64,000 nt of DNA from Escherichia phage BAU.Micro_ELP-22. Location of the stretch: the sequence record OR699282.2; one strand, 5' to 3'. The number at the start of each line of letters is the position of its first letter. The stretch's first letter is position 1. The notes under the pieces are model-generated. The model did not search any database and had not been told where the DNA came from. It was given only the letters and a program-made list of their open reading frames with translations. A program made the translations under genes and the position numbers. This document shows, one piece after another, positions 36,031-51,118 of this stretch.

Positions 36031-37140
36031 TTACTTGGGTAATGGAATTGTGGTCCATCTATTTGCGGCAACGTCACCTGGTACATATGTAGGACTACCA
36101 CTTACAGCAATAGTTTCATTACCATCATATACAACACTGAAGTTTGTGCACGTATACAACGCTGCGGCATCTGGATTGTAATTTTCAAGTGTTAGTGTAT
36201 TGGTGAACAAATTCAATGCAGTAGTTGAGCCGTTTTTACCATATGCACCTGTAGTATATATCTTTCCTTCTGTTGTTGAGTACATATTAACATATGACCC
36301 AGATGATGATTTAGCAATTTTATCTATCTTGCTATCTATTGTTTTAGAGTTAAATTGAAATGGATATACCTGTACGTTAGTATCTAAACCATTTCCCAGT
36401 TCCCCATTTAACTGCCACCCTGTGTGGTACATTCCCGCATTTGTATATGCAAGCGTACTATACGCATTACCACCCATTATTTTAGTGCCAGATAATTTTA
36501 AACCAAACGATGTCCACTTACCAGTTTCATTTCCTATGGAACCATAAGCACTTGTACCACACGCACGAAGCTCGCCATTTGACGTTAGAAGCACTGTATT
36601 ATTAACGTTACCAAATATATCAATAACCTGATTAGTGCCATTATTCAGTACTGAAGTAAAAGTACTCTGTGAGTAAGTACTACCTGAACCAACAGAACCA
36701 TTTGTGTTCATACCTCTTCCATATACAATTTTACCATCAGCACTAACATAGTGCATTGAATCAAAACCAATGGATATCATTTTAATATCAGATATATCTG
36801 GAAATGAAGAAGTTACATCTACTCCACCTAGTGGAATTGTATTATTTCCTAAACCTAATGAGACATTAGTTCCGTGCATTATAAATTTATCTTCTTTAAA
36901 ATATAAAATATTATATCCACCAGCCCATGCATTATTAACGCCATTTGTAATCAGTACCCATTTATTTTGTGTAGTAGTTCCAGTAATATTTAACTGTTGA
37001 TAGTTATTGATTCCACAACCATATAGCGATCCATCACCATATAGTACATATAAATTATCATATCCTGCAATAACTTTCTTTATTTTTTTGGGTACAGGTG
37101 CTACGTTCCCATAATTCATCATTCTTGCAAAAGGTAACAT
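36031..37140 (-). CDS. RCC1-like repeat protein, leader-peptide family
   Basis: 369 aa; MLPFARMMNYGNVAPVP; first gene of the array, divergent from the 37244 promoter. Confidence 0.8.
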   Translation of the reverse strand: MLPFARMMNYGNVAPVPKKIKKVIAGYDNLYVLYGDGSLYGCGINNYQQLNITGTTTQNKWVLITNGVNNAWAGGYNILYFKEDKFIMHGTNVSLGLGNNTIPLGGVDVTSSFPDISDIKMISIGFDSMHYVSADGKIVYGRGMNTNGSVGSGSTYSQSTFTSVLNNGTNQVIDIFGNVNNTVLLTSNGELRACGTSAYGSIGNETGKWTSFGLKLSGTKIMGGNAYSTLAYTNAGMYHTGWQLNGELGNGLDTNVQVYPFQFNSKTIDSKIDKIAKSSSGSYVNMYSTTEGKIYTTGAYGKNGSTTALNLFTNTLTLENYNPDAAALYTCTNFSVVYDGNETIAVSGSPTYVPGDVAANRWTTIPLPK

Positions 37141-37243
37141 ATATCCCTCCTTTATTCATTATATCATATTTACCCCATAAAGAAAACCCTTGACATCCTT
37201 TCAGTACTGGTGTACTATAGAAGGAATATAAGGAGAACTACAC

Positions 37244-37471
37244 ATGACAAATACTCTTAAGTACTACCTGAATACTCTAAATGAACTAGAGTACGGTGAG
37301 TTTCTCGCAGATAGTTCGTGGCTAATTGAGCTAAAAAATTATAATAGTCCAGGATGCACCCTTATGATGAACAATGCAATTGATACCCTCATAGTAAGCA
37401 TATTGCACAGCAACATCTGCGGGGATAGCAATAAACAATTATCAAAAATCTTAGTACTGCTATCTATATGA
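37244..37471 (+). CDS. small protein, tandem family S (75 aa)
   Basis: SD AAGGAGAA; first member of array. Confidence 0.6.
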   Translation: MTNTLKYYLNTLNELEYGEFLADSSWLIELKNYNSPGCTLMMNNAIDTLIVSILHSNICGDSNKQLSKILVLLSI

Positions 37472-37671
37472 ATATCGAACAGTACTACATCGATGCACTA
37501 CCAACAAAAGGTCTACGTGAAAGCCTACTGCATACACAAACTAATTTCAAACACCTCAAACGTAGCCCTAAACTCCTGAACTCGTACAGGAATAATAACA
37601 TAAGAAATGCTTTACAAGGGGTAGAATGTATGCAATACTATTACATCCTTACCCTATTAATCGAGTACTAA
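37468..37671 (+). CDS. small protein, tandem family S
   Basis: 67 aa; ends LTLLIEY. Confidence 0.6.
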   Translation: MNIEQYYIDALPTKGLRESLLHTQTNFKHLKRSPKLLNSYRNNNIRNALQGVECMQYYYILTLLIEY

Positions 37672-37672
37672 T

Positions 37673-37882
37673 ATGAATACTGAACATAAAGAATTCTACA
37701 CCAAATACCTTAGCAACGAAGAACAATTGTTTCTAAGGAGTGTATCACCTGTAAGTACCAATACTCAATTCGGTAGAGATTGCTTTAATAATTGTATACG
37801 TAGTACTCTAGAAGCAATCGAATGCAATAACAAAAATATTATGTACTCAGGTTTAATAGGACTAATATATTTCTATGAATAA
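37673..37882 (+). CDS. small protein, tandem family S
   Basis: 69 aa; MNTEHKEFY..C..LIYFYE. Confidence 0.6.
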   Translation: MNTEHKEFYTKYLSNEEQLFLRSVSPVSTNTQFGRDCFNNCIRSTLEAIECNNKNIMYSGLIGLIYFYE

Positions 37883-38069
37883 TCATAAAGATTTCTATTG
37901 TAGTAAACTACCCAAACAAGAACAGCTATCATTCTCTTTAGCACCACCTATGAGAAAGGATAATCTGTATTATAATTACGATTTCAGGATGGTGACACGT
38001 TATGCAATAGAACATCAGTTCCCTGAAACTAAGTACCGCTCTATCCTGAACCTCATCTTTAAGTTCTAA
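37875..38069 (+). CDS. small protein, tandem family S
   Basis: 64 aa; MNNHKDFY..LIFKF. Confidence 0.6.
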   Translation: MNNHKDFYCSKLPKQEQLSFSLAPPMRKDNLYYNYDFRMVTRYAIEHQFPETKYRSILNLIFKF

Positions 38070-38121
38070 AAGGTACACCAGGGACCGAGTACTTTAATAT
38101 AGTAAGGCTAATTACATTATA

Positions 38122-38307
38122 ATGAATCATATAAGCTACTACTACCAACAACTATCCGACAGAGACAAGTACAGTCACAACTCCCATGTGTGGTACTACA
38201 AACGCGGCAGTATAAGAGACAAACAACATTACTTCTGTATTTCTATTAAAGAAGCACTGACAACTAAGTACACGTACCGAGCAGTACTTAAACTTATTGA
38301 AATGTAA
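38122..38307 (+). CDS. small protein, tandem family S
   Basis: 61 aa; ..YTYRAVLKLIEM. Confidence 0.55.
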   Translation: MNHISYYYQQLSDRDKYSHNSHVWYYKRGSIRDKQHYFCISIKEALTTKYTYRAVLKLIEM

Positions 38308-38317
38308 AGAGAATACT

Positions 38318-38500
38318 ATGAACATTGAATTGTACTTAAGTAAATTACAGCCTGGCGATAGATTCATCTACAATAAGTTCGAATTCAACTACAAGAACGG
38401 GAGCAACAAATATCGTCGAGGATACCTATATACAAGCACAAGAGATGCACAAAACGAAAAGTACACATACAGAGAAGTACTTAAACTAATCTCTATTTGA
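38318..38500 (+). CDS. small protein, tandem family S
   Basis: Internal ATG; ..YTYREVLKLISI. Confidence 0.55.
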   Translation: MNIELYLSKLQPGDRFIYNKFEFNYKNGSNKYRRGYLYTSTRDAQNEKYTYREVLKLISI

Positions 38501-38508
38501 GGTAATAT

Positions 38509-38694
38509 ATGAATACATTTGAGTACTATACCAATAAACTATCTATGCCTGAAAGATCTCATCTCTATGTGTGGAGAAATGCGTATAAAAGCGGCAATAA
38601 ACTTATACAAAGAAATTCCCTTACAGTGTGTACAAATTTAATTAAAGCAGAGTACCGCACATATATTGAAGTACTCAAACTGATAGCAATATAA
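38509..38694 (+). CDS. small protein, tandem family S
   Basis: 61 aa; MNTFEYY..C..VLKLIAI. Confidence 0.6.
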   Translation: MNTFEYYTNKLSMPERSHLYVWRNAYKSGNKLIQRNSLTVCTNLIKAEYRTYIEVLKLIAI

Positions 38695-38702
38695 GGTACT
38701 CT

Positions 38703-38882
38703 ATGCAAGAATTCTATATCTATAACCTCCAGCACAAAGATAGATACAACTATAATAAATTCCAAAGGTACTACACAGTCGGGAACAAAAGAGATAAAAA
38801 ACGTTATCTACTCTCGTGTACAGTAGAAGCACAAAACGAAAAGTACACGTACAGAGAAGTACTTAAACTAATCTCAATCTAA
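38703..38882 (+). CDS. small protein, tandem family S
   Basis: 59 aa (below track cutoff); MQEFY..YTYREVLKLISI. Confidence 0.55.
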   Translation: MQEFYIYNLQHKDRYNYNKFQRYYTVGNKRDKKRYLLSCTVEAQNEKYTYREVLKLISI

Positions 38883-38889
38883 GGTAGAC

Positions 38890-39078
38890 ATGAACACTTT
38901 TGAGTACTACTTCAATAAACTAAACCACATAGAACAAAGTATGCACTACACATTTATTCAGAACCATCAATCATCTTCACCTCTAATTAAAAACATATCG
39001 ATTGAGATTATAACTAACAGTGTACTGTCATCTGAACGTTATATGTATATTGATGTACTGAAACTCATCTCTATGTAA
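38890..39078 (+). CDS. small protein, tandem family S
   Basis: 62 aa. Confidence 0.6.
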   Translation: MNTFEYYFNKLNHIEQSMHYTFIQNHQSSSPLIKNISIEIITNSVLSSERYMYIDVLKLISM

Positions 39079-39086
39079 GGAATACT

Positions 39087-39266
39087 ATGCAACAATTCTA
39101 TAGAGAACACATAAGCATTAAAGACCGTTTCATGTACGACACCTTCGTGAAGTACTACAAACTAGGAACAAAAAGTACTAAAAATATTAATCTCAATAGC
39201 TGCATTTATGCTGTACTAACACAAGATAATCCCTACAGGGAAATCATTGCCCTGGCATCTATATAA
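39087..39266 (+). CDS. small protein, tandem family S
   Basis: 59 aa (below track cutoff); MQQFY.. Confidence 0.5.
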   Translation: MQQFYREHISIKDRFMYDTFVKYYKLGTKSTKNINLNSCIYAVLTQDNPYREIIALASI

Positions 39267-39276
39267 AGGAAACCAA

Positions 39277-39936
39277 ATGAAACTTAATCCACACAGCAAA
39301 CAATACCTTAAGCACTTTAAGTACCTCAACAGTATTCAAGCAGAATCTTTTACACCAACATATACTTACGACCCGTGTGTACTAAAGAAACGAAATAAAA
39401 AGAAAAAATCCAGAAATGTTCTCGTATCTAAGAACCTCAAATCGTACTTGAAGAAAAATAATATAGCTCTTGCTTTTATTAATATCTATAATACTGATTT
39501 AAAAGTATTGAGTACTAATACCAGCACAAAAGCACTAAAGAATGCATCTATCTATATACACATGGATAATATCCCGTGCACTATAATTCTATCTTTCGGG
39601 AATGTATACTTCTTCGGGAATTGTAATAGCACCCATGATATCAGTACTGCACAATTCCAAATCGGCGATATGTACTGCATGGGTTCAGAAAAAATACACG
39701 ATAACATGCACTTCTTCCAAAAGCAACGTACTAACGAAACTGATACAGTACTGCAATTCCTCAAAGAACTAGAACACAAAGAATTATCCGAGGAAGAAGA
39801 ATTCATGTACAGTACTGTAATCGATAATCCAGGACTCTATAAAAACGCGTACAAACTAACAAAACATGTACAGGAACTTATCAGTACTGATAAGAAATTT
39901 CATCACCTCATTACGTATATTTCAAACTATGTATAA
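39277..39936 (+). CDS. hypothetical protein (219 aa) inserted in small-gene array
   Basis: Internal ATG with SD AAAGGAAA; unrelated to array members. Confidence 0.55.
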   Translation: MKLNPHSKQYLKHFKYLNSIQAESFTPTYTYDPCVLKKRNKKKKSRNVLVSKNLKSYLKKNNIALAFINIYNTDLKVLSTNTSTKALKNASIYIHMDNIPCTIILSFGNVYFFGNCNSTHDISTAQFQIGDMYCMGSEKIHDNMHFFQKQRTNETDTVLQFLKELEHKELSEEEEFMYSTVIDNPGLYKNAYKLTKHVQELISTDKKFHHLITYISNYV

Positions 39937-40111
39937 AGAATACTACAAAGATAAAATCCCAATGCATCTACAACACCATATACCAAACGTTGCATTGGGT
40001 ATCAAAGATCACGCAAAGATAATGTTCCAACAATGTACTAAGTACACGCTCATATACGATGATAATCCATATATGCTGTACTACGTAGTAATGCTAACAT
40101 TCAGGTACTAA
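39929..40111 (+). CDS. small protein, tandem family S
   Basis: MYKEYYKDKIPMHLQ..LTFRY; start overlaps upstream stop. Confidence 0.55.
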   Translation: MYKEYYKDKIPMHLQHHIPNVALGIKDHAKIMFQQCTKYTLIYDDNPYMLYYVVMLTFRY

Positions 40112-40112
40112 T

Positions 40113-40292
40113 ATGAATACTTATAAAGAATTCTACCTCTCGTACCTTAATTCCGATATAGTAACATCCAATACATTCAGTACTAAAATTATCTATAATG
40201 AAGTAATGAAAGAATGTATTAAAGGTGCTATTAACCCTAAAGATACGTATGACTTGTACTATGCAGTACTAACCCTTGTTTTCACGAAATAA
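40113..40292 (+). CDS. small protein, tandem family S
   Basis: 59 aa (below cutoff); MNTYKEFY..C..LVFTK. Confidence 0.5.
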   Translation: MNTYKEFYLSYLNSDIVTSNTFSTKIIYNEVMKECIKGAINPKDTYDLYYAVLTLVFTK

Positions 40293-40300
40293 CACATAAT

Positions 40301-40492
40301 ATGAATAACCACAAAGAATACTACATAGAGAAACTCCCAATGTATCTACAACACCTTGTACCAACAGAACCATTGCGTATAGAAAAAGACTACGAAAAAG
40401 ACTATTTCATTAAGTGCACTAAATCCTCGATAGATATTGAGGACTATAATAGAGTACTGTATCACATCCTTTTACTAATATATAAGTACTAA
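40301..40492 (+). CDS. small protein, tandem family S
   Basis: 63 aa; MNNHKEYYIEKLPMYLQ..C..LLIYKY. Confidence 0.65.
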   Translation: MNNHKEYYIEKLPMYLQHLVPTEPLRIEKDYEKDYFIKCTKSSIDIEDYNRVLYHILLLIYKY

Positions 40493-40493
40493 T

Positions 40494-40682
40494 ATGAATA
40501 ACCACAAAGAATACTACATAGAGAAACTCCCAATGTATCTCCAGAGCCAGATACCAAACGTTGCATTGGGCATAAAAGATGACGCAAAAACAATGTTCCA
40601 AGAATGTACTAAGTACACCCTAATGTTCGAGGATAGAACATATAAACTGTACTACATCCTCGCCCTAATATTCAAGTACTAA
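40494..40682 (+). CDS. small protein, tandem family S
   Basis: 62 aa; N-terminus identical to previous member, tail ALIFKY. Confidence 0.65.
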   Translation: MNNHKEYYIEKLPMYLQSQIPNVALGIKDDAKTMFQECTKYTLMFEDRTYKLYYILALIFKY

Positions 40683-40692
40683 AGAGAATAAT

Positions 40693-40881
40693 ATGAATAA
40701 CCACAAAGAATACTACATACAATTTCTCCCCAGTATATTTGAACACTACGCCAGATATAAAGTCCCCCTGGATAACGATTTGGCAGTACTGGGATTCAAT
40801 AATTGCATAGAACGAAGTATAGAAAATAGTAGTAGTTATGACCAGCTATATAACACTATCCTACTTATATTCAGGTACTAA
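40693..40881 (+). CDS. small protein, tandem family S
   Basis: 62 aa; ..LLIFRY. Confidence 0.65.
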   Translation: MNNHKEYYIQFLPSIFEHYARYKVPLDNDLAVLGFNNCIERSIENSSSYDQLYNTILLIFRY

Positions 40882-40882
40882 T

Positions 40883-41071
40883 GTGTATAAAGAATACTAC
40901 ATAAAAGATTTACCACCGCACCTTCAAGGTAATCTGTTAGAAGATGAACCTCGCGGTATAGAAATAAACTACGAAAAAGACTACTTTATTACGTGCACTA
41001 AATGCGTGATAAATTATTACAACTACAATCAAGTACTGTATCATACCCTGTACTTAGCATTCGTATTCTAA
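40883..41071 (+). CDS. small protein, tandem family S (GTG start)
   Basis: Family frame begins VYKEYYIKDLPP at GTG; ATG lost relative to paralogs. Confidence 0.5.
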   Translation: MYKEYYIKDLPPHLQGNLLEDEPRGIEINYEKDYFITCTKCVINYYNYNQVLYHTLYLAFVF

Positions 41072-41080
41072 GAGAACAAT

Positions 41081-41269
41081 ATGCATAAAGAATACTACAC
41101 AAAATATTTCCCAATGTACCTCAGAACTAATCTATTAGATAAACCTCGCGGTATCAATGCTCAAAACGATAAAGTGTACTTTACTATGTGCACTAAAGCA
41201 TGTATACTAGATTTTGATAGCTATCATCGAGTACTGTATCATACCCTGTACCTAGCTTTCGTATTCTAA
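41081..41269 (+). CDS. small protein, tandem family S
   Basis: 62 aa; MHKEYY..C..YLAFVF. Confidence 0.65.
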   Translation: MHKEYYTKYFPMYLRTNLLDKPRGINAQNDKVYFTMCTKACILDFDSYHRVLYHTLYLAFVF

Positions 41270-41278
41270 AAGAACAAT

Positions 41279-41464
41279 ATGCATAAAGAATTCTACTTAA
41301 GCCATCTCGATCTAAACTCCCAAATGCTTATACCACTAATCCCAATAGATATCAAGGATAAGAAAAATACCGAACAATTCATTTACCATACACAGTGTGC
41401 GATCACCCCAAATTACATTCCATATGAATTGTACTACATTCTCGCCCTAATATATAGGTACTAA
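41279..41464 (+). CDS. small protein, tandem family S
   Basis: 61 aa; ..ALIYRY. Confidence 0.65.
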   Translation: MHKEFYLSHLDLNSQMLIPLIPIDIKDKKNTEQFIYHTQCAITPNYIPYELYYILALIYRY

Positions 41465-41465
41465 T

Positions 41466-41651
41466 ATGCATAGAGAATACTACACACAATTTGTTAAAGG
41501 GAACTACAAACATGCCGTACCCAGAACCCCTTTAAATTTTCATGACCCAAGTACTATATTCTTGTTCCATGACGCAATACGTACAGTACTCAATACTAAA
41601 GATGAAGATGTGCAGTACGTATTCTTACTATTACTTATATACAGACACTAA
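41466..41651 (+). CDS. small protein, tandem family S
   Basis: 61 aa; MHREYY..LLLIYRH. Confidence 0.6.
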   Translation: MHREYYTQFVKGNYKHAVPRTPLNFHDPSTIFLFHDAIRTVLNTKDEDVQYVFLLLLIYRH

Positions 41652-41656
41652 CTAAT

Positions 41657-41866
41657 ATGAATAAAGAACATAAAGAATTCTACTCCAAATACATAAGCCC
41701 CTCAGAACAAATGTTTCTAAGGACTACAGCACCTTTAAGTACTAATACATTTTTCGGCAGAGTATGCTACAATAATTGTATTCAAATGACTTTAAACGCA
41801 AACGAAGATGGTAACAGTACTAACCTGTACTCAGGTATCATAGGTATACTATTCCTGTATGAATAA
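41657..41866 (+). CDS. small protein, tandem family S
   Basis: 69 aa; close paralog of 37673..37882. Confidence 0.65.
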   Translation: MNKEHKEFYSKYISPSEQMFLRTTAPLSTNTFFGRVCYNNCIQMTLNANEDGNSTNLYSGIIGILFLYE

Positions 41867-42047
41867 TTACAAAGACTTCTATTTGAATACACTACCTACT
41901 GTACTTTCTCTAAGTGCTCAATGTAAAATCCCCCTGGATAATGCTTACGCCAGATATAGCTATTCCATAACTGTTAATCGATGTATAGAGAATCATTGCA
42001 GTACTAACCAGTACTATAACATAATCCTACTTATATTCAGGTACTAA
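41859..42047 (+). CDS. small protein, tandem family S
   Basis: 62 aa; ..LLIFRY. Confidence 0.6.
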   Translation: MNNYKDFYLNTLPTVLSLSAQCKIPLDNAYARYSYSITVNRCIENHCSTNQYYNIILLIFRY

Positions 42048-42048
42048 T

Positions 42049-42231
42049 ATGAATAAAGAACATAAAGAATTCTATATACGAAAACTAACATTCGTCCCCG
42101 TAAGAATATATAAAGAATGCGACCCAAGATTATACCTATGGCACTTCAATGAGTGCATAAAAGATTCTATATACCCTAAGAACTATAAAGAACAATTGTG
42201 CTCAGTACTAACACTAGTACTATCATATTAA
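42049..42231 (+). CDS. small protein, tandem family S
   Basis: 60 aa. Confidence 0.6.
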   Translation: MNKEHKEFYIRKLTFVPVRIYKECDPRLYLWHFNECIKDSIYPKNYKEQLCSVLTLVLSY

Positions 42232-42246
42232 TTAATAGAGAATACT

Positions 42247-42447
42247 ATGCATAAAGAGTATAAAAACTTCTATATAAGTAAACTAAAAGAAAATGAACAA
42301 GTATGGATTAGATCTATAATTCCACTGGCATTTAATAGATATGCATTTAACAGATGTACCGAGATTGCTATAGACCCTTATAATATTAAAGAGAATGTAC
42401 AGTATAATCAGTACTACTATATCTTAATGCTTATATATAGAAAGTAA
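42247..42447 (+). CDS. small protein, tandem family S
   Basis: 66 aa; ..LMLIYRK; last member. Confidence 0.6.
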   Translation: MHKEYKNFYISKLKENEQVWIRSIIPLAFNRYAFNRCTEIAIDPYNIKENVQYNQYYYILMLIYRK

Positions 42448-43439
42448 TTAAACACATAGAGACAGGGGAAGCTCCTAGTGAACAACCTTTATGTACAGGC
42501 GAATTGTTAAAATTCAGCCTGGACAAATGCGATCACTAGGATTCTCCCCAGGCTAAACCCCGTAATCATAGGTAGTCATAAGTAATCATATATAAACATT
42601 TATATGAGCACCGTAGAATCACAGAATGATTATATATGATTCAGTACTGATTAGTATAGACAAGATTGCTCAAGAATGCACGGAAATGTGTGTGAATGAT
42701 TCAGTACTGATATCCCACTAAAGTAGGCAGAGGAAGTCTGCCGTACTTTGTAGTTTCCAAGCTCCTTTTCCATTTTTCAAATTACATCAAATGTAATCAA
42801 AAGTAATCACGCAATGATTAGTACTGAATTATTACTTTCACCTTAATTTCAATTACCCCTTTACCCTTCGGGGTAAAATTCCATTACCCCTTGAGGCTCC
42901 AGCAAAAAGTTGGTTAGTACTCCATCCTAAATCTCGATCCTAAAAATTTTGGAGTACCTATGAAATAAAAGTTGGATCTTCGAAAGTTGAAATTTACGTT
43001 GGGACGTTTATGATTTGTGGGATATAATGATGTTTGTAGTCGGGTAGTTCTCAAGAATATCAGTACTGAATGGTGAAAGAAAGTTATTGACATTATGATT
43101 CAGTACTGTATAATGTTCTACATAGAGAGATGAGTTGCTGCGAACAATTCATTTACTCTACCTCCTGTCGTGAGACAGTACAGAAAAGATAGTTCCTCCT
43201 GTGGTGGTACATCTTTTTGAACCTCATATGAAAATCGTAATAACAGTACTGATATTAACAGAATGGTGTCAGTACTGATTTTAATCTAAATCATTATGCC
43301 ACCAGCACAAGCTGGTGGATTCCCTCTAACAGTATTCAGTACTACATGATAGTCTTCATCCTCCTAGGGTAACATAGTGAGGGCTATGATGGCAGTACTG
43401 AATACTCCCTTTCAAAAGATAGATCTATGGTATAGTACT

Positions 43440-43630
43440 GACGGATTTTGGGTGTAGTTACCCTGGATGGATTTTGGGCGTAGATATGTCTAGCCCTCCA
43501 GAAGTCTGGAAGTAAAGATGGCTATCCATCTAGACGGCTAAACGGCTAGATTTCTGGATGGCTGGATGGCTAGACGTTTGGACGGCTAAACGGCTAGATG
43601 GTTACACGTCTGGAAGTATAGACGGCTAAA
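43440..43630. repeat. iteron-like short direct repeats (GACGGCTAAACGGCTAGAT, CTGGATGG, GTCTGGAAGTA)
   Basis: Multiple 8-19 bp units repeated within ~190 bp. Confidence 0.55.
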
Positions 43631-44250
43631 TCAAAATTTTATTTTGTTTTTTCCAATAGTTCCCCTACCGCGTGGGGATAGTTTCCCCGCAGTATCTGGT
43701 GTTAGATTTTTCTGAATCTGGAATCATTATCTTATAAACTGGGGGCAATGTCAACGACCTGGACGGATATTTTTAAAAATTTTTTCAGTACTGAATTTTG
43801 GGCGTAACTATGCACCCGGTGGGCTGGAGTCTTTCTCGACTTGATGGAACTATTATACAGTACTGGAAAAATAAAGCAATACCCTGGAAGCAAAAAAGTT
43901 TTAATTAATTTGCTTGCTATCCTGGGCCGGACTATGGTACTATAATTCAGTACTGAGAAAGTGCGTTTGCCTGCTAGGGTGCGGGAGTGTATCCTTTTTT
44001 TATATCTTGAATTTTGGGCGTAATTCCGCACCCTCTGGGGTTTCCGCTTTCTCGTGTCTATGTAGTAATTATACGCTTTTTCAGGATCAAGTCAATACCT
44101 AAAAACAAAATAATTGAAAATAATTTAACGCGTTTAAACGGCCTGTAAAGCCCTGGAATGATTGGAATGGTGCAAATGTATAGCTTATGTGTATTAATGC
44201 GTTAGAATGCGTCTGAGGCCGTTTTTTGGGGTGTAGTAGTGATTTGGTTG

Positions 44251-44345
44251 ATTCAGTACTGAATAATAGTACTCCTATATAGAAAGATAGTTCCCCTGGA
44301 TTGATTCAGTACTGAATAATAGTACTCCTATATAGAAAGAAAACT
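44251..44345. repeat. ~40-bp direct repeat x2 (GATTCAGTACTGAATAATAGTACTCCTATATAGAAAGA)
   Basis: Two near-identical copies ~55 bp apart. Confidence 0.6.
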
Positions 44346-44371
44346 ATTTTAAAAGTATTTGTAGAAAGTAC

Positions 44372-44399
44372 TTGCACCGTACTGATAAAAGCGTATAAT
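44372..44399 (+). promoter_or_regulatory. class A early-type promoter (AGTACTTGCA..TATAAT) followed by 5' stem-loop
   Basis: First of ~25 similar promoters in 44-64 kb. Confidence 0.6.
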
Positions 44400-44454
44400 G
44401 TTTTACATCGAGAGCGGGAACACTTCCCGCTACACTTTAAAAGAGATGAAAACG

Positions 44455-44817
44455 ATGGCGACTCAAATCAATAAAATCATGCTTAACCTGGTAAACTTCC
44501 GCGATGAGATGAAAGGTCTTCCGGCTGAAACTGTAAAAATTCACATTGCAGCTTATCGGGAACTTATTGCAATGTTGCCGCTTAAGCGTGAACAATACGC
44601 CGCTACTTTGATGCTGGATTCAATGATCCATATAATGATCTCAAATGATTTGACGATGGTTTATCAGTATATGGGCGAAAATTTCGCGGTGTGTAGTAAG
44701 CCAGTACCAGGGATGGCAACAACTGAGGAATTGCACGGCTTAAACTTAAAACAAGATGCATGGGATAATATGCCTCGTTTCCTGGTATGGGCTGACAGTG
44801 GCAAAATTTACAAATAA
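44455..44817 (+). CDS. hypothetical protein
   Basis: Start after hairpin and SD AAGAG (120 aa); track ORF 44398 starts inside the -10. Confidence 0.6.
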   Translation: MATQINKIMLNLVNFRDEMKGLPAETVKIHIAAYRELIAMLPLKREQYAATLMLDSMIHIMISNDLTMVYQYMGENFAVCSKPVPGMATTEELHGLNLKQDAWDNMPRFLVWADSGKIYK

Positions 44818-44911
44818 GTTTAATAAAGTACTTGCATACTAAGTTAAAACAAGTATAATACTTTCTATCAGGTGGGGAATAGTTCCCCACTATAATTAAG
44901 AGATTAATTTT

Positions 44912-45145
44912 ATGAGTACTATTTTAACTGTTTCTCAATCCGTTGCACTGACTGACCTATTAAACGCTTTAAGCCGTTGCACTGAGGTTGGCTTGTTTGA
45001 TGTGGTTGACGTTGCACCGGACGTTATTAATCATTTTTGTGATGCGATGGAAGAATGTAAGGAAGATGATAGCCGTATGATGGCGGTCGCCTTTGAGGAA
45101 GTACAGCCAGGTGAGATCAAAGGTTTACCAGTACTGAAAAAATAG
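44912..45145 (+). CDS. hypothetical acidic protein
   Basis: ORF 77 aa; promoter + hairpin + SD upstream. Confidence 0.65.
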   Translation: MSTILTVSQSVALTDLLNALSRCTEVGLFDVVDVAPDVINHFCDAMEECKEDDSRMMAVAFEEVQPGEIKGLPVLKK

Positions 45146-45227
45146 TACTTGCAAACTAAGTTTAAAAGCGTATAATGTTTTACATCAGGTGGGGAATAGT
45201 TCCCCACTATATAAGAGGATTAAAAAA

Positions 45228-45467
45228 ATGGCAAAATCAAAAATGTTCTTAGGTCACAAAAACAAAACTCATTGGAATGTAAGCCTGTGGATTAATAACG
45301 ATGAGGGATTGTATCGGTTGGCCCTGGATTTTATTAACGACAACACTAATCGCAATGATGCGGCCCGTCATATGATGTTATTTTTAGAACAGACTGGACA
45401 AGATAAAACACCGGACGGATTCAAATATAGCACTACTGCGATCCGTGCGGCGATGGTTGGAATGTAA
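45228..45467 (+). CDS. hypothetical protein, paralog of 47341..47580
   Basis: 79 aa; shared GHKNKTHWNVSLWINN..TPDGFKYSTTAIRAAMVGM. Confidence 0.7.
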   Translation: MAKSKMFLGHKNKTHWNVSLWINNDEGLYRLALDFINDNTNRNDAARHMMLFLEQTGQDKTPDGFKYSTTAIRAAMVGM

Positions 45468-45486
45468 TAGAATAGAATTTATTTAA

Positions 45487-45520
45487 AGTACTATCGCAAA
45501 AAATGATAGTACTTTATAAT
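45487..45520 (+). promoter_or_regulatory. class B promoter flanked by inverted repeat AAGTACTAT..ATAGTACTT
   Basis: Palindromic arms upstream of TATAAT; same architecture at ~58664, ~51040, ~54225, ~54490, ~62010. Confidence 0.5.
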
Positions 45521-45557
45521 AGTGTTTTATTCATACACCAACGATAAGGGCAACAGC

Positions 45558-45824
45558 ATGAATATTAAGTATTTTGCGACGCGTGAACAAGCTCGGATCG
45601 CCGCACGCCAGGACGGGGCAACGTTTAAAGATATGGGCGTACAATCGGAACGTGGTAAACGTTGGGCCATTGTAAAGCGTAGTACCGCCAGATCATTACA
45701 GTACTGGTTAGCGGCCTTAAAAAGTCCCGATAGTGTATCGCGTCGAGTGGTAGAAATAAAGCTCGACCGAAAGGGCAACCGCGTGACCGTGTACCGTACT
45801 AAAAAGATTGCAGTACTTGAATAA
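45558..45824 (+). CDS. hypothetical protein, paralog of 58746..59141
   Basis: 88 aa; YFATREQARIAARQDG..KGNRVTVY shared. Confidence 0.65.
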   Translation: MNIKYFATREQARIAARQDGATFKDMGVQSERGKRWAIVKRSTARSLQYWLAALKSPDSVSRRVVEIKLDRKGNRVTVYRTKKIAVLE

Positions 45825-45911
45825 AAAGTACTTGCAAACTAAGTTTAAAAGCGTATAATGTTTTACATCGAGAGCGGGAACACTTCCCGCCTATAACCTG
45901 GAGTAATAAAA

Positions 45912-46142
45912 ATGACTAATATGTATATGACTGAAGTTAAAACCGTAAAAGATACTACCACAAATAAAGTTACTTACTTACAGCGGATCTGTGGTGTATG
46001 GCAACGTATCAGCAAATCAAAGTACTTTAAATTAACATCATATGCAAACCGTTCGGATTCATTCAGTACTGAAATAAAAGGTAATAAAGTACACCAATAT
46101 GGCACTTATTATTATTATAGCCTGGACGCGATTGCAGTATAA
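45912..46142 (+). CDS. hypothetical protein
   Basis: ORF 76 aa; promoter, hairpin, SD GGAG. Confidence 0.65.
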   Translation: MTNMYMTEVKTVKDTTTNKVTYLQRICGVWQRISKSKYFKLTSYANRSDSFSTEIKGNKVHQYGTYYYYSLDAIAV

Positions 46143-46424
46143 GCAGTTTACAAATCTTTACAATTGCCGGTATTGACTTATTTTGTCAGTACTGGCATAA
46201 TGTATTCATTGGCAGATAAGCCGTAGCCCATAGGGTGCGGGAGTGTATCTATAGAAAAATTAGTTTAGTATAGTTACAATTGTGCACCCGGTGGGTTAGC
46301 TGTTGTCATGTGGTATATTATGCCAGTACTTGATAATGCTGTCAATACTTTTTTTTACTATTCAGTACTGAAAACTATTTTTAAAAAGTACTTGCAAACT
46401 ATGTTTAAAGGCGTATAATGTTTT

Positions 46425-46505
46425 ACATCAGGACGGGGAACGAAATAAGTAACTTCCCGTTAAGTAGCCCAGGAGTAAGGCACACGAAAAACTCCCCTGA
46501 TAAAA
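46425..46505 (+). ncRNA. candidate structured leader / small RNA between tandem promoters
   Basis: CAGGACGGGGAACG..ACGAAAAACTCCCCTGA with paired ends; near-copy at 57554-57628. Confidence 0.3.
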
Positions 46506-46569
46506 TAGTTTGACAAATGTTTTTAAAAGCGTATAATACTTACATCAACTACTGAATGAGGGTTACAAA

Positions 46570-47258
46570 ATGAAAACTATCACTACTACTACTTTCGTTA
46601 TGGATTTTTCTGAATTGAACGCAGAACAAAAAACGTCAGCTATCGAACTGGTTCGGGAACGTGAAAAAAACTCAAACGACATTTTTCTGAATTGAACGCA
46701 GAACAAAAAACGTCAGCTATCGAACTGGTTCGGGAACGTGAAAAAAACTCAAACGACAATTATTTTTCTGAAAGTGAAATTGAATACTATAAAGAAACAG
46801 TACTACCGGAATATGGCATTAATGACGCTGAAATACAATTCAGTGGTTTTTGGTCCCAGGGTGACGGTGCATCAATCAGTACTGACCACGTTGACGCAGT
46901 GAAGTTTTTACGCAAGGTAAGAGCATTAACTAAGTATCGCTCAATCCGTCACTTGCTGAATGAAGATGATTTGGCGATGAGTGTAAAGCGTTCGCACTCC
47001 CACTACTCGCATGAGAATACTGTAAGCGGGTACATTGAATCGGCTTACACTGATTTAACCGCAAAACAAGAAACGTTAGTTAATGAGCTTGAGGAACTAC
47101 TCACTGAAACTATTCGTGAATTGTCCCGCAAGTTGTACCGTGATTTAGAGAATGCATATGAGGATCAATTCACTACTGAAAACATTACGGCACTGATTGA
47201 GGGTAACGAGTATCAATTCAATGTTATTGATGGCGTAGTGGAATCAATCGAATATTAA
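46570..47258 (+). pseudogene. gene disrupted by perfect 77-bp tandem duplication
   Basis: ATG 46570 frame stops at 46693-46695 inside copy 2; rest of ORF open in the frame restored by deleting one copy. Confidence 0.6.
46604..46757 (+). repeat. perfect 77-bp tandem duplication (2 copies)
   Basis: 46604-46680 identical to 46681-46757. Confidence 0.9.
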
Positions 47259-47340
47259 TTTAAAAAGTACTTGTTTAAAGGCGTATAATACTTTATATCG
47301 AGGCGGGGAGTGGTTCCCCGCTCAAACGAGGATTAAAAAA

Positions 47341-47580
47341 ATGGCTAGTACTAAAACTTACAACGGGCACAAAAACAAAACTCATTGGAATGTAAGCCTT
47401 TGGATTAATAACGGTGAGTCATTGTATCGGCTTGCTCAAAGTTGCATCGCACAAAGTAGAACTAAAGATATTGCAGCGGAATGTATGTACCGCAGATTAA
47501 AAGCCAACGGTACTACTACAACGCCGGACGGATTCAAATATAGCACTACTGCGATCCGTGCGGCGATGGTTGGAATGTAA
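47341..47580 (+). CDS. hypothetical protein, paralog of 45228..45467
   Basis: 79 aa; SD GAGGA. Confidence 0.7.
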   Translation: MASTKTYNGHKNKTHWNVSLWINNGESLYRLAQSCIAQSRTKDIAAECMYRRLKANGTTTTPDGFKYSTTAIRAAMVGM

Positions 47581-47637
47581 TATTCAGTACTGAGATAATG
47601 GCGGGTAATAGTTCCCGCCTTTACTGAGGGTTATCTA

Positions 47638-47925
47638 ATGAGTAAAGTAATAAAGTACAATGTGTTAAGCAAATCATTGTCTATCAGTGAATGCACCGAT
47701 GGTTTTTGGATGTACGATGAAACGCGTGGCATGAATTTAGCTATGCGTGCAAAAACTGCTGAGGCGGCGTATATTCAAGCACTGGAATACTACCAGGAAC
47801 GTTTAAAGGAAGTAGAAGAAGATTATAAAAGCCTCAAAGCGAAAGTAGATCATTTCGTCGGTCAATTCGTGGAAGACAACGACGAGGACGGGCACTACTG
47901 CGACCGTTGCGGATCTTACAGTTAA
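47638..47925 (+). CDS. hypothetical protein
   Basis: ORF 95 aa; C-terminal HYCDRCG. Confidence 0.6.
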   Translation: MSKVIKYNVLSKSLSISECTDGFWMYDETRGMNLAMRAKTAEAAYIQALEYYQERLKEVEEDYKSLKAKVDHFVGQFVEDNDEDGHYCDRCGSYS

Positions 47926-47942
47926 GTACTGAGGATTATCTA

Positions 47943-48146
47943 ATGAGTGATTTAATCGACCGCATCAAAGAGCTTGAAGAAAAAGAATTGCAGTTGATCG
48001 GGTTACGGAATAAAGTATTCCATGATTTAGGTGGCTTTATTAATGCCTGGGATAGTGGCGATCCTGATGCGTTACCTGCTAACCGCCAGGCGATGATCAA
48101 TGATGTGCGTGGTGTCTTTGAGTATGTTTTAAAGCAATTAAATTAA
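47943..48146 (+). CDS. hypothetical protein
   Basis: Internal ATG with SD GAGGA (67 aa). Confidence 0.55.
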   Translation: MSDLIDRIKELEEKELQLIGLRNKVFHDLGGFINAWDSGDPDALPANRQAMINDVRGVFEYVLKQLN

Positions 48147-48232
48147 AAAAGTACTTGCAATTAGTTTTCAGTACTGTATAATGGTTTACATCAAAGGGAG
48201 AAATGGTTCTCCCTGGTAATGAGGAAAATAAA

Positions 48233-48454
48233 ATGGCAAATATCACTACTCTTTCCCAACTGGAAGCACTGGTTAAATCTATGCGGGAACATGCCGACAA
48301 AATCGGCGTACAAGATCCAGCCGTTTGCTTCTGCGACGAATTGAATGATGATACCCTGGTAATAGCAGAAGTCCAGGACGTTTCTAACTATTCCTCGCGT
48401 TACACTGGCGGCGTAGCAAATAAAGGTGACTTCTGTTTATACCTTACAAAATAA
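48233..48454 (+). CDS. hypothetical protein
   Basis: Start after 5' hairpin and SD GAGGAAAA (73 aa); track start 48203 lies inside hairpin. Confidence 0.6.
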   Translation: MANITTLSQLEALVKSMREHADKIGVQDPAVCFCDELNDDTLVIAEVQDVSNYSSRYTGGVANKGDFCLYLTK

Positions 48455-48457
48455 CAA

Positions 48458-48492
48458 CGCGGGGAGATAATAACTCCCCGTTACTTTTTCAG
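48458..48492 (+). terminator. intrinsic terminator
   Basis: CGGGGAG-ATAATAA-CTCCCCG hairpin + TTACTTTTT. Confidence 0.55.
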
Positions 48493-48696
48493 TACTGAAT
48501 CATTTAATAGACGGATCTCGGCACCCGGTGGGTTAGTGACTGTTTCGTCTTGATGTAGTAATTATGCCAGTACTGGATGCACTTGTCAACAACTATTTTT
48601 CAAATACTTTTTATTAAAATACTTGCTAATAGTTTTTAAACGCGTATAATGTTTTGCATAGGGGAGCGGTTCCCCTGGTAACTAAGGAATAAGAAA

Positions 48697-48933
48697 ATGC
48701 TTGAACAAATCAAATCAACGTCTGCTAATGTAACGGGAACGGTATCACACTTTATTGGTGATGAATCGCGGGGCGTTCCCTATTGTGCTGTACATGTAAA
48801 CACTGAGGGTAACTACTGGTTTACGGTTTACGGATCATATTCATTTGGACGGCCAGGGCATCAAAAAATTCTGGATAAAGTACAGCCAACGGGTAAAAAT
48901 ATCACGGCTGAAATGTTTTATAAAAAATCATAA
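48697..48933 (+). CDS. hypothetical protein
   Basis: ORF 78 aa; SD AAGGAA. Confidence 0.65.
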   Translation: MLEQIKSTSANVTGTVSHFIGDESRGVPYCAVHVNTEGNYWFTVYGSYSFGRPGHQKILDKVQPTGKNITAEMFYKKS

Positions 48934-49017
48934 AGTACTTGATAATAGTTTTTAGTACTGTATAATATTTTACATAGCACGGGGGAGCGGTTCCCCCTGG
49001 TAACTAAGGATAATCAA

Positions 49018-49317
49018 ATGAAAATTGCAATCATCGCCCTGGCTTTATCTGTTTCCTCTTTCGCTGTTAATGCGTCGTTAGATGTGAGTAGTGAAAAATT
49101 CATTCAGTGCACTGTTGCGATGACCAATGAAAGTACGGGCGAGATTGTTTTAAAGGATTTAGAGATCCAGCCACAAGCATTTAAAAACGGGCCGTTCCAT
49201 GAAGAAGACGAAAACGGTAGCACAACCATTTACTATGATGCCAGTACTAAACGCGGTTCGGTCACGGTTATGGATACTGAGAAAGTAACTCATACAGGCG
49301 TTATTAATTGCCGTTGA
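49018..49317 (+). CDS. secreted protein (signal peptide)
   Basis: ORF 99 aa; SD AAGGA. Confidence 0.65.
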   Translation: MKIAIIALALSVSSFAVNASLDVSSEKFIQCTVAMTNESTGEIVLKDLEIQPQAFKNGPFHEEDENGSTTIYYDASTKRGSVTVMDTEKVTHTGVINCR

Positions 49318-49338
49318 TTGATACTACGGGGTAACATC

Positions 49339-49569
49339 ATGACAGCACGAATAGTTTTACTTAACGAAAGCAGTACTACACAACTACTTAACGCCGTGCA
49401 TTATGATATTGAAACGAGCGTTAATCTTATCAGTACTGTCGTACTGTTGGACACTGGAAAGGTCGCCAATGATAAAGCGATTGCAGGTATACTAACGGAT
49501 CTTGAGCCTGGTAGCAGTGCACCAATAACGTTAAATGGTAAAGTGTTTAACATTTTACTTACTGATTAA
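49339..49569 (+). CDS. hypothetical protein
   Basis: Internal ATG (76 aa). Confidence 0.5.
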   Translation: MTARIVLLNESSTTQLLNAVHYDIETSVNLISTVVLLDTGKVANDKAIAGILTDLEPGSSAPITLNGKVFNILLTD

Positions 49570-49575
49570 GTACAT

Positions 49576-49598
49576 AGCCCACCTGGTGGGCTTTTTTG
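49576..49598 (+). terminator. intrinsic terminator
   Basis: AGCCCACC-TGGTGGGCT hairpin + T6. Confidence 0.7.
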
Positions 49599-49802
49599 TT
49601 TTTGTAGTATCGTAGTACTGAGATACTTTGAAAATAGTTTTAAAAAAGTAGTTGACATTACCGCAGAAAAGCGTAGAATGTATTACATCAAGACGGGGAG
49701 CACTAAGTAGACCGCCAGTAAGTCGAACGAAAAACTGGACACGTCGAGAAAACTTTGATACACTAATAAACGTAAACTAAACTTTAATTGAGGATTTATA
49801 AA

Positions 49803-50285
49803 ATGGCTAATGTAAAATCATTCATCAAAGCACTGGTAGCAAATGAAACTAACGTCGCGGCTGAGATCCTGGCTGAACTGGATAACGATACCATGAAAGC
49901 GGTACGCAATAATTTTAACATCGCGTACAGTACTGCGAAAGAACTACAAGCAAATAAAGCGGCAGAAATTGAAGCGGCAAAGGCGGCCCGTGAAGCAGAA
50001 CTACAAGCAACAATCGAAAGTATTCAGGCGGCAGTAGTTGGATTGGATCTGGAAGTAGTTACAGAGATGGCACAAAAAGCCCTGGCGGTTAAGTATGGGG
50101 AAGACAAGCCAGAAGTAAAAGCCAAAAAATGGATTCAGGAACGCGTAGCGGTAGTACTGGACAACGGGGAAGAATATCTGATTCCGGTGCGTGGTAACTG
50201 TATTGCGGTAGTACTGGACGCGATTAACTCCAGTGGTATGACTCGCGAGGAATGGATCGAAGCTCATCGCAAAGTTGAAGCATAA
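49803..50285 (+). CDS. Ala-rich putative coiled-coil protein
   Basis: Start at ATG with SD GAGGA (160 aa); long structured leader upstream. Confidence 0.65.
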   Translation: MANVKSFIKALVANETNVAAEILAELDNDTMKAVRNNFNIAYSTAKELQANKAAEIEAAKAAREAELQATIESIQAAVVGLDLEVVTEMAQKALAVKYGEDKPEVKAKKWIQERVAVVLDNGEEYLIPVRGNCIAVVLDAINSSGMTREEWIEAHRKVEA

Positions 50286-50306
50286 CAATTAAAGTACTGA
50301 ATCACT

Positions 50307-50334
50307 AGCCCACCTTAAACGGTGGGCTTTTTTG
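50307..50334 (+). terminator. intrinsic terminator
   Basis: AGCCCACC-TTAAAC-GGTGGGCT + T6. Confidence 0.7.
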
Positions 50335-50570
50335 TGTTTATCGTTTACCAGGCCACCAGCACCGCCTAGAAACGATTCTAACGCATTAAACTGATTATCT
50401 GATGCATTGCCCTAGCTGGTGGCGTTAAGGTCGTTGTAATGCGATTGAGAGCGTTTAAAGTATTTTGCAAAAAGTAATAAAAAGTACTTGCACGATTAAG
50501 AGATTAGCGTATAATGTTTTACATCGAGAGGGGGAAACGGTTCTCCTTCCAAATCAAAGGAATCAAAACA

Positions 50571-50798
50571 ATGGCTATTATCATTACTCGCGTATCTGGT
50601 ACTACTGGCAACGAACAAGTAGTTGCAGTCATTACCAACAAGGAAGGTGCGGAATTGCAAAATGCAATGAATACCTGGGCCGTTAATGAGTTCGGTCAGT
50701 GGGCAAGTGTAGCATACATTGAAACCTATCAAGTGCCGTCGATTAGTTTAACTGATTTGGGCGTTGAGCGTATCCTTTGCCTGGATGAATTAAATTAA
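50571..50798 (+). CDS. hypothetical protein
   Basis: Start after 5' hairpin, SD AAAGGAA (75 aa). Confidence 0.6.
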   Translation: MAIIITRVSGTTGNEQVVAVITNKEGAELQNAMNTWAVNEFGQWASVAYIETYQVPSISLTDLGVERILCLDELN

Positions 50799-50883
50799 AA
50801 AAGTACTTGCAAAGTAAATCGAATAAAGTATAATACATTACATCAAGGGGAGAAATGATTCTCCCCACTACAAGGAAACTAAT

Positions 50884-51027
50884 ATGAAAACTTGTCAATG
50901 TGGTCAGAAATCTATTACTGGTTTAAAGCGGGGCGTTGCTCTTTGCCAGTACCATTATAATTTACAAGTATGGGGTAAAGAATGGGCCGACCAGGTGGAA
51001 GCAGCAAAGAAAGCAAAAAGTAAGTAA
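50884..51027 (+). CDS. small Cys-rich protein (47 aa)
   Basis: Promoter + hairpin + SD AAGGAAA; CQCG..CQYH; below track cutoff. Confidence 0.5.
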   Translation: MKTCQCGQKSITGLKRGVALCQYHYNLQVWGKEWADQVEAAKKAKSK

Positions 51028-51118
51028 AAATATTATCACAGTACTATTGACATAGTTTGATAGTACTGGCATAATAGATTTTATCAAAACGACACATATT
51101 AATTTAAGGAATACCAAA

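Follow-up and report, generated by a model that had tools for sequence, protein, structure and literature searches.

An untranslated leader with a MetJ operator-like array at the left edge of the direct terminal repeat of an Asteriusvirus jumbo phage

Escherichia phage BAU.Micro_ELP-22 (OR699282.2) was analysed here over a window of 64,000 nucleotides (nt), in which positions 42448-44454 contain no conserved open reading frame (ORF), transfer RNA (tRNA) or Rfam match and are dense in non-random repeats. This region comprises the boundary of the direct terminal repeat (DTR) and the first 1.7 kb of that repeat, and is a noncoding, conserved sequence that carries an array resembling the operators of the host repressor MetJ. 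The best explanation for the whole, mechanism included, is that it represents the terminal untranslated region forming the left edge of the approximately 21.4 kb DTR of an Asteriusvirus jumbo phage, a reading which we regard as probable. Its role as a packaging end is well supported, and the array is predicted to bind MetJ in complex with S-adenosylmethionine (SAM).

The window derives from an Asteriusvirus jumbo coliphage of the PBECO4/121Q group: 2.2 kb around the region is 95-98% identical to JP4, PBECO4, SP27, and fEgEco12, and 89% identical to 121Q. Scans of the region for tRNA and tmRNA genes found none, and an Rfam search gave no match at gathering thresholds nor at E<=1. The mechanically called ORFs of 31-99 amino acids have no Pfam or PHROG hit and are frameshifted or interrupted by stop codons in close relatives, for which reasons a protein-coding reading was rejected. 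A preliminary description of about 1.9 kb of noncoding DNA without a credible ORF is thus borne out, and the features it listed are real, in sequence as in coordinates. The ORF-free stretch probably ends at 44454 (approximately 2.0 kb) rather than 44367, because the -10 box of the first gene (44394-44399) overlaps the ATG at 44398; several records of relatives start the first repeat gene at the equivalent of 44455. That gene (window 44398-44817) is given as 139 amino acids in some records and 120 in others, and the position of its promoter favours the start at 44455. In 121Q and G17, two more sparingly annotated records that were examined, the stretch between the last gene of approximately 60 amino acids and the next gene is empty save for one predicted terminator, annotated in G17, while several automatically annotated records place short ORFs on both strands there.

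The physical end of the chromosome is placed inside the region because five GenBank records (fEgEco12, vB_Ec-M-J, CRJP21, E9.1, and BF17) start exactly at the equivalent of window 42722, where fEgEco12 reads AGTAGGCAGAGGAAGTCTGCC. The DTR of fEgEco12 measures 20,993 bp by PhageTerm and was confirmed by restriction digests (PMC13070987); that of Sharanji is 20,668 bp by PhageTerm, the vB_Ec-M-J record annotates a repeat of 21,525 bp, and the DTRs of relatives span about 20.7-21.5 kb. Positions 1-1500 of fEgEco12 are identical to its right-repeat copy (353741-355240), which is directly preceded by the homolog of window 42448-42721; the window itself holds one copy only. A single extra A in the window at this junction sets the end at 42722 +/-1. 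The right boundary was examined in relatives: the last bases of the window align approximately 125 nt short of that of fEgEco12, and the repeat here would therefore run from 42722 to roughly 64,125. As shown for near-identical phages, the left end of the packaged chromosome, which is also the left DTR boundary, would thus lie at 42722, with 42448-42721 closing the unique DNA ahead of the right-hand copy of the repeat, and with 42722-44454 forming the first 1.7 kb of each copy. A packaging site or terminus was among the options put forward in the preliminary description, and it is this one that the end position in relatives and the conserved motif found there support. The features around the end are as follows.

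42448-42721, unstranded: unique flank outside the DTR, with a long hairpin at 42465-42549 (z-score -4.3) and two TGATTCAGTACTGA palindromes (42637, 42697)
42562-42604, unstranded: GTAATCA repeats outside the end, phased at 10 bp
42719-42750, plus strand: inverted repeat holding the left genome end, packaged DNA from 42722 (+/-1) reading AGTAGGCAGAGGAAGTCTGCC; hairpin fold z-score -3.3
42733-42741, plus strand: GAAGTC(T)GC end motif, here GAAGTCTGC, 11 nt inside the end; candidate terminase recognition element
42777-42809, plus strand: 10-bp-phased (A)TGTAATCA repeats inside the end, mirroring the set outside at 42562-42604

The cut falls in the left arm of the inverted repeat, 11 nt before GAAGTCTGC, and GTAATCA-type repeats phased at 10 bp lie on both sides of it. 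The hexamer RAAGTC is found in register, at +12 to +17, at the starts of Serratia phage BF, Klebsiella phage Muenster (whose record annotates a PhageTerm repeat), and phage XbC2, as well as at an internal site of phage GAP32. Beyond the right boundary, fEgEco12 and vB_Ec-M-J read CCT/T(T)AGCGACTTCGAT (the slash marks the boundary), which is the exact inverted motif 2-3 nt past it, and in Muenster the sequence of the left end recurs at the right boundary, inverted and slightly degenerate. No copy of GAAGTCGC is found in the 64 kb of the window. The terminase would recognise a GAAGTCGC-type motif together with the flanking phased repeats and would cut 11 nt to its left, inside the inverted repeat, while the inverted copy would mark the opposite repeat boundary. 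The end motif is thus a putative terminase recognition and cleavage site, and as such a candidate recognition motif conserved across four genera. The T7-like coliphage PGT2 starts with a comparable sequence, GAGGTCGC at +13 to +20, which is like the jumbo-phage motif offset by 1 nt. Two relatives vary at this point: phage EJP2 (1900-2700) shows no homology to the window left of approximately 42897, and so lacks the terminal 175 bp and the end motif, and phage A4 (1640-1900) keeps the end and has diverged over 42730-42900. The genome ends of both may differ from that of the window.

From the end inward the leader is homologous to the left ends of other Rak2-like phages, as judged from local alignments well above shuffled controls.

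Window 42897-42963: XbC2 54-120
Window 43389-43682: BF 583-845
Window 43515-43696: XbC2 647-832
Window 43647-43730: Muenster 922-1006
Window 43852-44074: Muenster 1156-1383 (121 bits, against a null maximum of 31)
Window 43996-44072: XbC2 998-1071

The first approximately 1.7 kb is ORF-free in XbC2, BF, and Muenster alike, and among Asteriusviruses the conservation of several blocks equals that of coding DNA. The alignments reveal a region that is ORF-free, conserved, and colinear across Rak2-like genera, and the leader is, on this evidence, an old feature of these phages. Three blocks stand out.

42897-43000, unstranded: most conserved block, with an inverted repeat GTACTCCA (42917) / TGGAGTAC (42950) around ATCCTAAA repeats; 96-100% identity in five of the six aligned Asteriusvirus relatives and 64% in EJP2; homologous also to Muenster 173-230
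43647-43730, unstranded: conserved hairpin block, TTCCCCTACCGCGTGGGGATAGTTTCCCC (43660-43688), lying after the array in several genera and after a Fur-box cluster in Muenster
43852-44074, unstranded: block shared with Klebsiella Alcyoneusviruses; both strands carry promoter-plus-leader modules, and a terminator-like hairpin lies at 43976-43995

The second block is preceded by an array of short units.

43445-43482, plus strand: two copies of ATTTTGGG(T/C)GTA immediately before the array, with further copies at 43795 and 44011
43484-43627, unstranded: array of 18 in-register 8-bp units, consensus AGACGGCT; predicted host MetJ-SAM binding site

Read in register the array runs ... AGACGGCT AAACGGCT AGATTTCT GGATGGCT GGATGGCT AGACGTTT GGACGGCT ..., and its units are 73% identical to the MetJ met-box AGACGTCT. 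By comparison, the E. coli K-12 metJ/B operator (AGAAGTTT AGATGTCC AGATGTAT TGACGTCC) shows 75% identity per box and that of metF 69%. The array has an in-register segment score of 24, whereas shuffled sequences of 64 kb reach at most 4.0 and real operators score 3.5-6; in five of five E. coli met loci the best hit of the identical scan lay inside the correct regulatory region. Base frequencies in 118 phage boxes correlate with those in 13 natural boxes at 0.86-0.91 (0.95 when symmetrised), the value for the present array being 0.90, and both sets are degenerate alike at position 1 (A/G) and position 4 (C/T). For the array, all periods reported by Tandem Repeats Finder (8, 16, 24, 32, and 48) are multiples of 8. 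In terms of sequence, then, the array appears indistinguishable in kind from MetJ operators, and the "iteron-like repeats" of the preliminary description are better read as tandem met-boxes in 8-bp register. The short direct repeats which it reported at 43440-43630 are all exact (GACGGCTAAACGGCTAGAT twice, CTGGATGG three times, and GTCTGGAAGTA twice); of its four copies of a motif beginning with A/G, three match ATTTTGGGCGTA exactly and the fourth does so with one mismatch, where 0.46 would be expected.

Were host MetJ-SAM to coat the array, up to approximately 18 dimers would be arranged over 144 bp between convergent promoters. Near the end, the array might thereby form a roadblock or insulator made of protein, or it might alternatively act as a sponge which titrates MetJ once the DNA has been replicated. 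Its purpose may be to insulate convergent promoters or the end, to titrate the repressor after replication, or to play a part in stepwise DNA entry as proposed for T5. A phage-encoded MetJ was also sought, and none of the window's reading frames encodes a homolog. Searches of the literature for reports of met-boxes or MetJ in the genomes of phages, or of this region in Asteriusvirus or Rak2-like phages, returned nothing relevant; as far as could be found, a tandem MetJ-site array has not previously been described in phages.

Similar arrays are present elsewhere. BF and XbC2 possess 15-16 boxes (15 units in XbC2) located 650-800 bp from the left end, GAP32 has its array at an equal distance from its end-equivalent, and EJP2 has 25 boxes; across Rak2-like phages the distance of the array, or repressor boxes, from the end is about 650-900 bp. 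Outside this group, the T5-like Aeromonas phage AhSzq-1 contains 29 boxes beside a DnaA box and a LexA-type palindrome near its A1/A2 genes, the T5-like Vibrio phage Pontus contains 17 boxes, and the T7-like coliphage PGT2 has eight met-box-like units at 38-101. Operator arrays of the MetJ type, exceeding any bacterial operator three- to ninefold in length, are found near the DNA ends of three unrelated phage families. The array is matched by 85 phage records, and for 84 of them the host belongs to the Enterobacterales, Vibrionales, or Aeromonadales, all orders in which MetJ occurs (PMC4239095). The one exception is XbC2, which is listed on Xanthomonas vesicatoria; its terminal sequence (1-1725) is near-identical to that of the congeneric Cronobacter phage GAP32.

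Other phages fill the same position differently. Muenster possesses no met-boxes; instead it has seven Fur-box-like sites at 787-906 and nearby, where 0.15 would be expected (threshold: at least 14 of 19 matches to GATAATGATAATCATTATC), and these directly precede the block homologous to window 43647-43730, which is the slot of the array in the window. A comparable order is seen in the injection stop signal (iss) of T5, known as Repeat Region 3 and located at NC_005859 9140-10149 in the left terminal repeat (Davison, bioRxiv 10.1101/866236). There, a LexA-type palindrome and DnaA boxes (9411-9518) are followed by four Fur-like boxes (9653-9718) and nine GTGCAAATCCGA repeats (DRD). In Pontus (45-800) this layout is reversed, with the met-box array replacing the Fur-like boxes. 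The LexA-type palindrome of T5, CTGTATAAATATACAG, is perfect and lies beside the known DnaA boxes; the T5 preprint discusses DnaA boxes, and does not discuss Fur or MetJ (Davison, bioRxiv 10.1101/866236). DnaA, Fur, and LexA boxes were not found in the window region.

These distributions bear on a different reading of the array, namely that it is bound by a phage protein, such as a ribbon-helix-helix regulator or the small terminase subunit, or is merely a structural DNA element. The G at position 6 in half of the boxes would suit such a protein, and the fixed distance between array and end in three genera is what one would anticipate of a packaging element. We nevertheless consider this unlikely: three unrelated phage families would hardly share one phage-encoded specificity, the host range of the array-bearing phages matches that of MetJ, and relatives occupy the slot with Fur-like boxes, the site of another host repressor. 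Moreover, the window encodes no MetJ homolog and there is no ribbon-helix-helix domain among 20 repeat-encoded proteins.

A broader and more tentative proposal can be made, which we hold to be possible though somewhat short of an even chance. Phages with fixed terminal repeats would possess an exchangeable slot near the end, into which oversized operator arrays for host global repressors are placed, recruiting those repressors as a roadblock or sink. Under this proposal the slot would contain MetJ boxes in the present phage, in Eneladus-, Mimas-, and Aeromonas-/Vibrio-T5-like phages and in some T7-like phages, and Fur boxes in Klebsiella jumbo phages and in T5, the latter having LexA and DnaA boxes also. 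If this is true, the roadblock could control DNA entry, transcription, or end processing, or else the repressor could be soaked up and the host methionine/SAM or iron supply turned on with no phage protein needed; the T5 injection-stop region would then be recast as a landing pad for host repressors.

The T5 parallel raises the question of whether the region is itself an injection stop of the T5 type, in which one terminal repeat enters first and transfer pauses until repeat-encoded proteins have been made. The topology matches that of Repeat Region 3, both being large untranslated regions at a repeat boundary; the repeat carries approximately 50 small genes, each with its own host-type promoter, and AhSzq-1 and Pontus have the met-box array in the iss-equivalent region. 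Against this, the best local alignment to the T5 iss region scores 32.6 bits, which equals the null maximum and is not significant. DnaA-box pairs and a LexA box are lacking, no A1/A2 homologs occur among 20 repeat proteins, and for one shared motif orientation the repeat boundary is the opposite one from T5. Paired DnaA boxes in the IRD'-spacer-IRC' arrangement were not found in 42448-44397, and a candidate GCGTTAGAATGCG match (44199-44211 versus the T5 9350s) was rejected as direct iss homology, as it is not above shuffled controls. A T5-type injection stop therefore strikes us as improbable. Neither T5 A1/A2-like nor ribbon-helix-helix proteins were found among the 20 repeat-encoded proteins, which include a GNAT acetyltransferase-domain protein (window 55683-56039) and two DUF7249 paralogs (45228-45467 and 47341-47580); most of the others have no Pfam match.

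Several observations count against the explanation that the region is a terminal leader with a MetJ-binding array. The end position derives from relatives with 93-98% identity, and the window has an extra A at the junction; some records may also have been re-oriented to earlier ones, in which case five identical starts are not five independent mappings. EJP2 has no homolog of the terminal 175 bp, and the cuts are asymmetric relative to the motif (11 nt on the left, 2-3 nt on the right). With respect to the array, position 6 is T or G in 48/51% of phage boxes whereas it is T in 92% of natural boxes; this is the sole departure, and a G there weakens one of two half-site contacts and could indicate a different ribbon-helix-helix protein. 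Furthermore, the array does not overlap a promoter, unlike real MetJ operators: the closest predicted transcription starts lie upstream of it by approximately 40 nt and 90 nt, and no met gene is nearby. One array-bearing phage, XbC2, is listed with a Xanthomonas host. To these may be added the chance-level similarity to the T5 iss region.

The remainder of the leader is rich in promoters and hairpins, the latter, reported earlier as GC-rich, folding better than shuffled sequences with z-scores of -2.8 to -4.9.

43087-43114, plus strand: perfect sigma-70 promoter P1 (TTGACA-16-TATAAT), not followed by an ORF, conserved in all relatives aligned
43121-43222, plus strand: candidate non-coding RNA of approximately 100 nt from P1, with three hairpins, including an invariant CUGUC-GUGA-GACAG, and a U-run
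43244-43318, unstranded: two strong hairpins (z-score -4.9), where the G17 terminator is annotated
43244-43277, unstranded: first of these hairpins, a 14-bp stem of two CAGTACTGA copies
43299-43318, unstranded: second hairpin, CCACCAGC-ACAA-GCTGGTGG
43726-43754, minus strand: ORF-less promoter TTGACA-17-GATAAT, directed at the array
44068-44095, minus strand: ORF-less promoter TTGACT-16-TATAAT with a leader like the early-gene leaders; 127-nt transcript with z-score -4.3
44248-44340, plus strand: two identical 40-nt repeats (TTGATTCAGTACTGAATAATAGTACTCCTATATAGAAAGA), 53 nt apart, copy number varying among strains
44372-44454, plus strand: promoter of the first DTR gene with its hairpin leader; this promoter heads a series of 18 AGTACTTGCA-type early promoters

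Weaker candidates of the extended -10 type were noted by eye at 43428 and 43935. Transcription is predicted to start at approximately 43121 and 43444 on the plus strand and at approximately 43719, 43850, and 44061 on the minus strand. In the second hairpin the loop is inverted (TTGT) in G17, 121Q, and fEgEco12, the whole palindrome having been flipped between strains. The repeat (window 44367-63211) contains 18 plus-strand early promoters of the form AAAGTACTTGCA-N16-TATAAT-GTTTTACAT; each of these (AGTACTTGCA-N16-TATAAT-GTTTTACAT) is then followed by one of a few conserved hairpin leaders (GCGGGAAcacTTCCCGC or GGTGGGGAAtaGTTCCCCAC), with a small gene behind it. Once the DNA has been injected, several strong gene-less promoters would be used by host RNA polymerase, and these would give rise to short structured RNAs or would merely load polymerase onto the repeat.

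The predicted P1 transcript folds at -30.9 kcal/mol (z-score -2.8), with four pairs kept through double changes among five distinct, related sequences, which is suggestive only. One could regard the region as mainly a cluster of small regulatory RNA genes whose repeats arose as a side effect of duplicating promoter-leader modules. Five or more sigma-70-like promoters without ORFs, the conserved three-hairpin fold with its four compensatory pairs, the resemblance of the leaders to early-gene leaders, and the conservation of 43852-44074 across genera all lend themselves to this view. On the other hand, there is no Rfam match, the covariation comes from only five distinct, related sequences, canonical terminators are few, and neither the genome end nor the met-box array nor its replacement by Fur boxes is explained. 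As the main function of the region we find this rather doubtful. Small RNAs were among the options in the preliminary description and are possible but unproven: the ORF-less promoters on both strands and the P1 fold speak for them, and the lack of an Rfam match against.

A further peculiarity is the abundance of AGTACT palindromes. Of the "five or more" copies of TGATTCAGTACTGA originally reported, four are exact (42637, 42697, 44249, and 44302), the count rising to six when up to one mismatch is allowed. For the core palindrome TCAGTACTGA the window contains 18 copies where 0.12 would be expected, and eight of these lie in this 1.9 kb. AGTACT itself occurs 295 times in the window versus 21.2 +/- 4.5 in dinucleotide shuffles, a 14-fold excess; no other of the 64 palindromic hexamers stands out. 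The leader has the highest density, 10 per kb, and there the hexamer is lengthened to (AT)TCAGTACTGA(AT); it also forms part of the early promoter. The excess holds in late-gene regions too, at 3 per kb. BF, Muenster, and the T5-like AhSzq-1 also contain AGTACT in their terminal regions, and the left repeat of T5 does not. Palindromes of 10-14 bp would bind a dimeric protein, probably one encoded by the phage. To our knowledge, the sites of TrpR, ArgR, MetR, and Cra do not fit this palindrome. The SlmA site (GTGAGTACTCAC) was considered and rejected, as TTCAGTACTGAA fails positions 1 and 3; SlmA requires G at positions 1 and 5, T at position 2, a purine at position 3, and A at position 4 (PMC3020112). 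Two of the exact palindromes (44249 and 44302) fall in the long direct repeat of about 40 bp, which was verified as 44248-44287 and 44301-44340 with 100% identity.

Finally, the repeats could be initiator-binding iterons of a replication origin within the region, with the ORF-less promoters supplying R-loop primers as at T4 oriF/oriG. The cumulative GC skew does reach a minimum at approximately 42.6-42.9 kb, strong gene-less promoters lie on both strands beside short AT-rich tracts, and convergent, overlapping transcripts are predicted around 43950-44060. The skew minimum, however, is confounded by gene orientation and by an upstream paralog array, and was set aside as evidence: elsewhere skew tracks gene orientation, being positive over 1-24 kb and negative over the minus-strand genes of 24-37 kb, and the local minimum arises because the plus-strand paralog array is of atypical composition. 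This array (window 37140-42447) consists of approximately 25 tandem paralogous plus-strand genes of about 60 amino acids and has negative GC skew, opposite to the other plus-strand blocks; it is absent in EJP2. There are no DnaA boxes at 8/9 matches or better in 42448-44397, the repeats are not phased iterons of 17-22 bp but have a period of 8 or 10 bp or consist of palindromes at irregular spacing, and no initiator gene was recognised among the neighbouring proteins. A replication origin, another of the options first suggested, is thus not supported and has little likelihood.

For annotation, the assignment fixes the true chromosome end and repeat boundary in jumbo phages that are often deposited with arbitrary start points, and it identifies a stretch into which gene callers put spurious ORFs. 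If host repressors do bind, phage DNA would have a protein-free way to exploit or disarm host regulators. For T5, defined boxes in combination with host knock-outs offer a handle on an injection-stop function that has been a question for decades.

Compared with known systems, the array is closest to the E. coli MetJ operators (AGACGTCT), with which it has in common a strict tandem 8-bp unit, a match of approximately 70-75% per box, and a TA step at the box junctions which makes CTAG in both. It differs from them in having 18 boxes versus 2-5, in lying neither over a promoter nor beside a methionine gene, and in possessing G at position 6 in half of its boxes. As a whole, the leader resembles the ends of BF, Erwinia phage pEa_SNUABM, GAP32/XbC2, and Muenster/RaK2, each of which has at its left end an ORF-free leader of 1.7 kb that is homologous and colinear, the end motif, a strong ORF-less promoter at approximately 270-390 bp, and a repressor-box array at approximately 650-900 bp; in the Klebsiella phages Fur-like boxes replace the met-boxes, and identity outside the conserved blocks is low.

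Fixed-end packaging signals are typified by the T7/T3 concatemer junction, with flanking arrays of short repeats, and by pacL-pacC-pacR of SPP1. As in these, the end proposed here is sequence-specific and located in or near an inverted repeat, phased short repeats lie on both sides of the cut, and promoters are nearby. The differences are a repeat of 21 kb rather than 0.16-0.3 kb and a T4-related terminase.

In relation to T5 Repeat Region 3, the present region lacks the DnaA-box pairs, LexA box, and DRD repeats and occupies the opposite repeat boundary relative to gene order, and two-step injection is not known for these jumbo phages. Both are nevertheless untranslated over more than 1 kb, highly conserved, and composed of repeats, palindromes, and boxes for host proteins, and both straddle the boundary of a long terminal repeat. 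The T5-like Aeromonas and Vibrio phages carry a met-box array in the T5-equivalent region, with the Fur-like boxes of T5 in the equivalent slot, and the overrun into unique DNA, beyond approximately 1.7 kb inside the repeat, is 274 bp here and 270 bp in T5.

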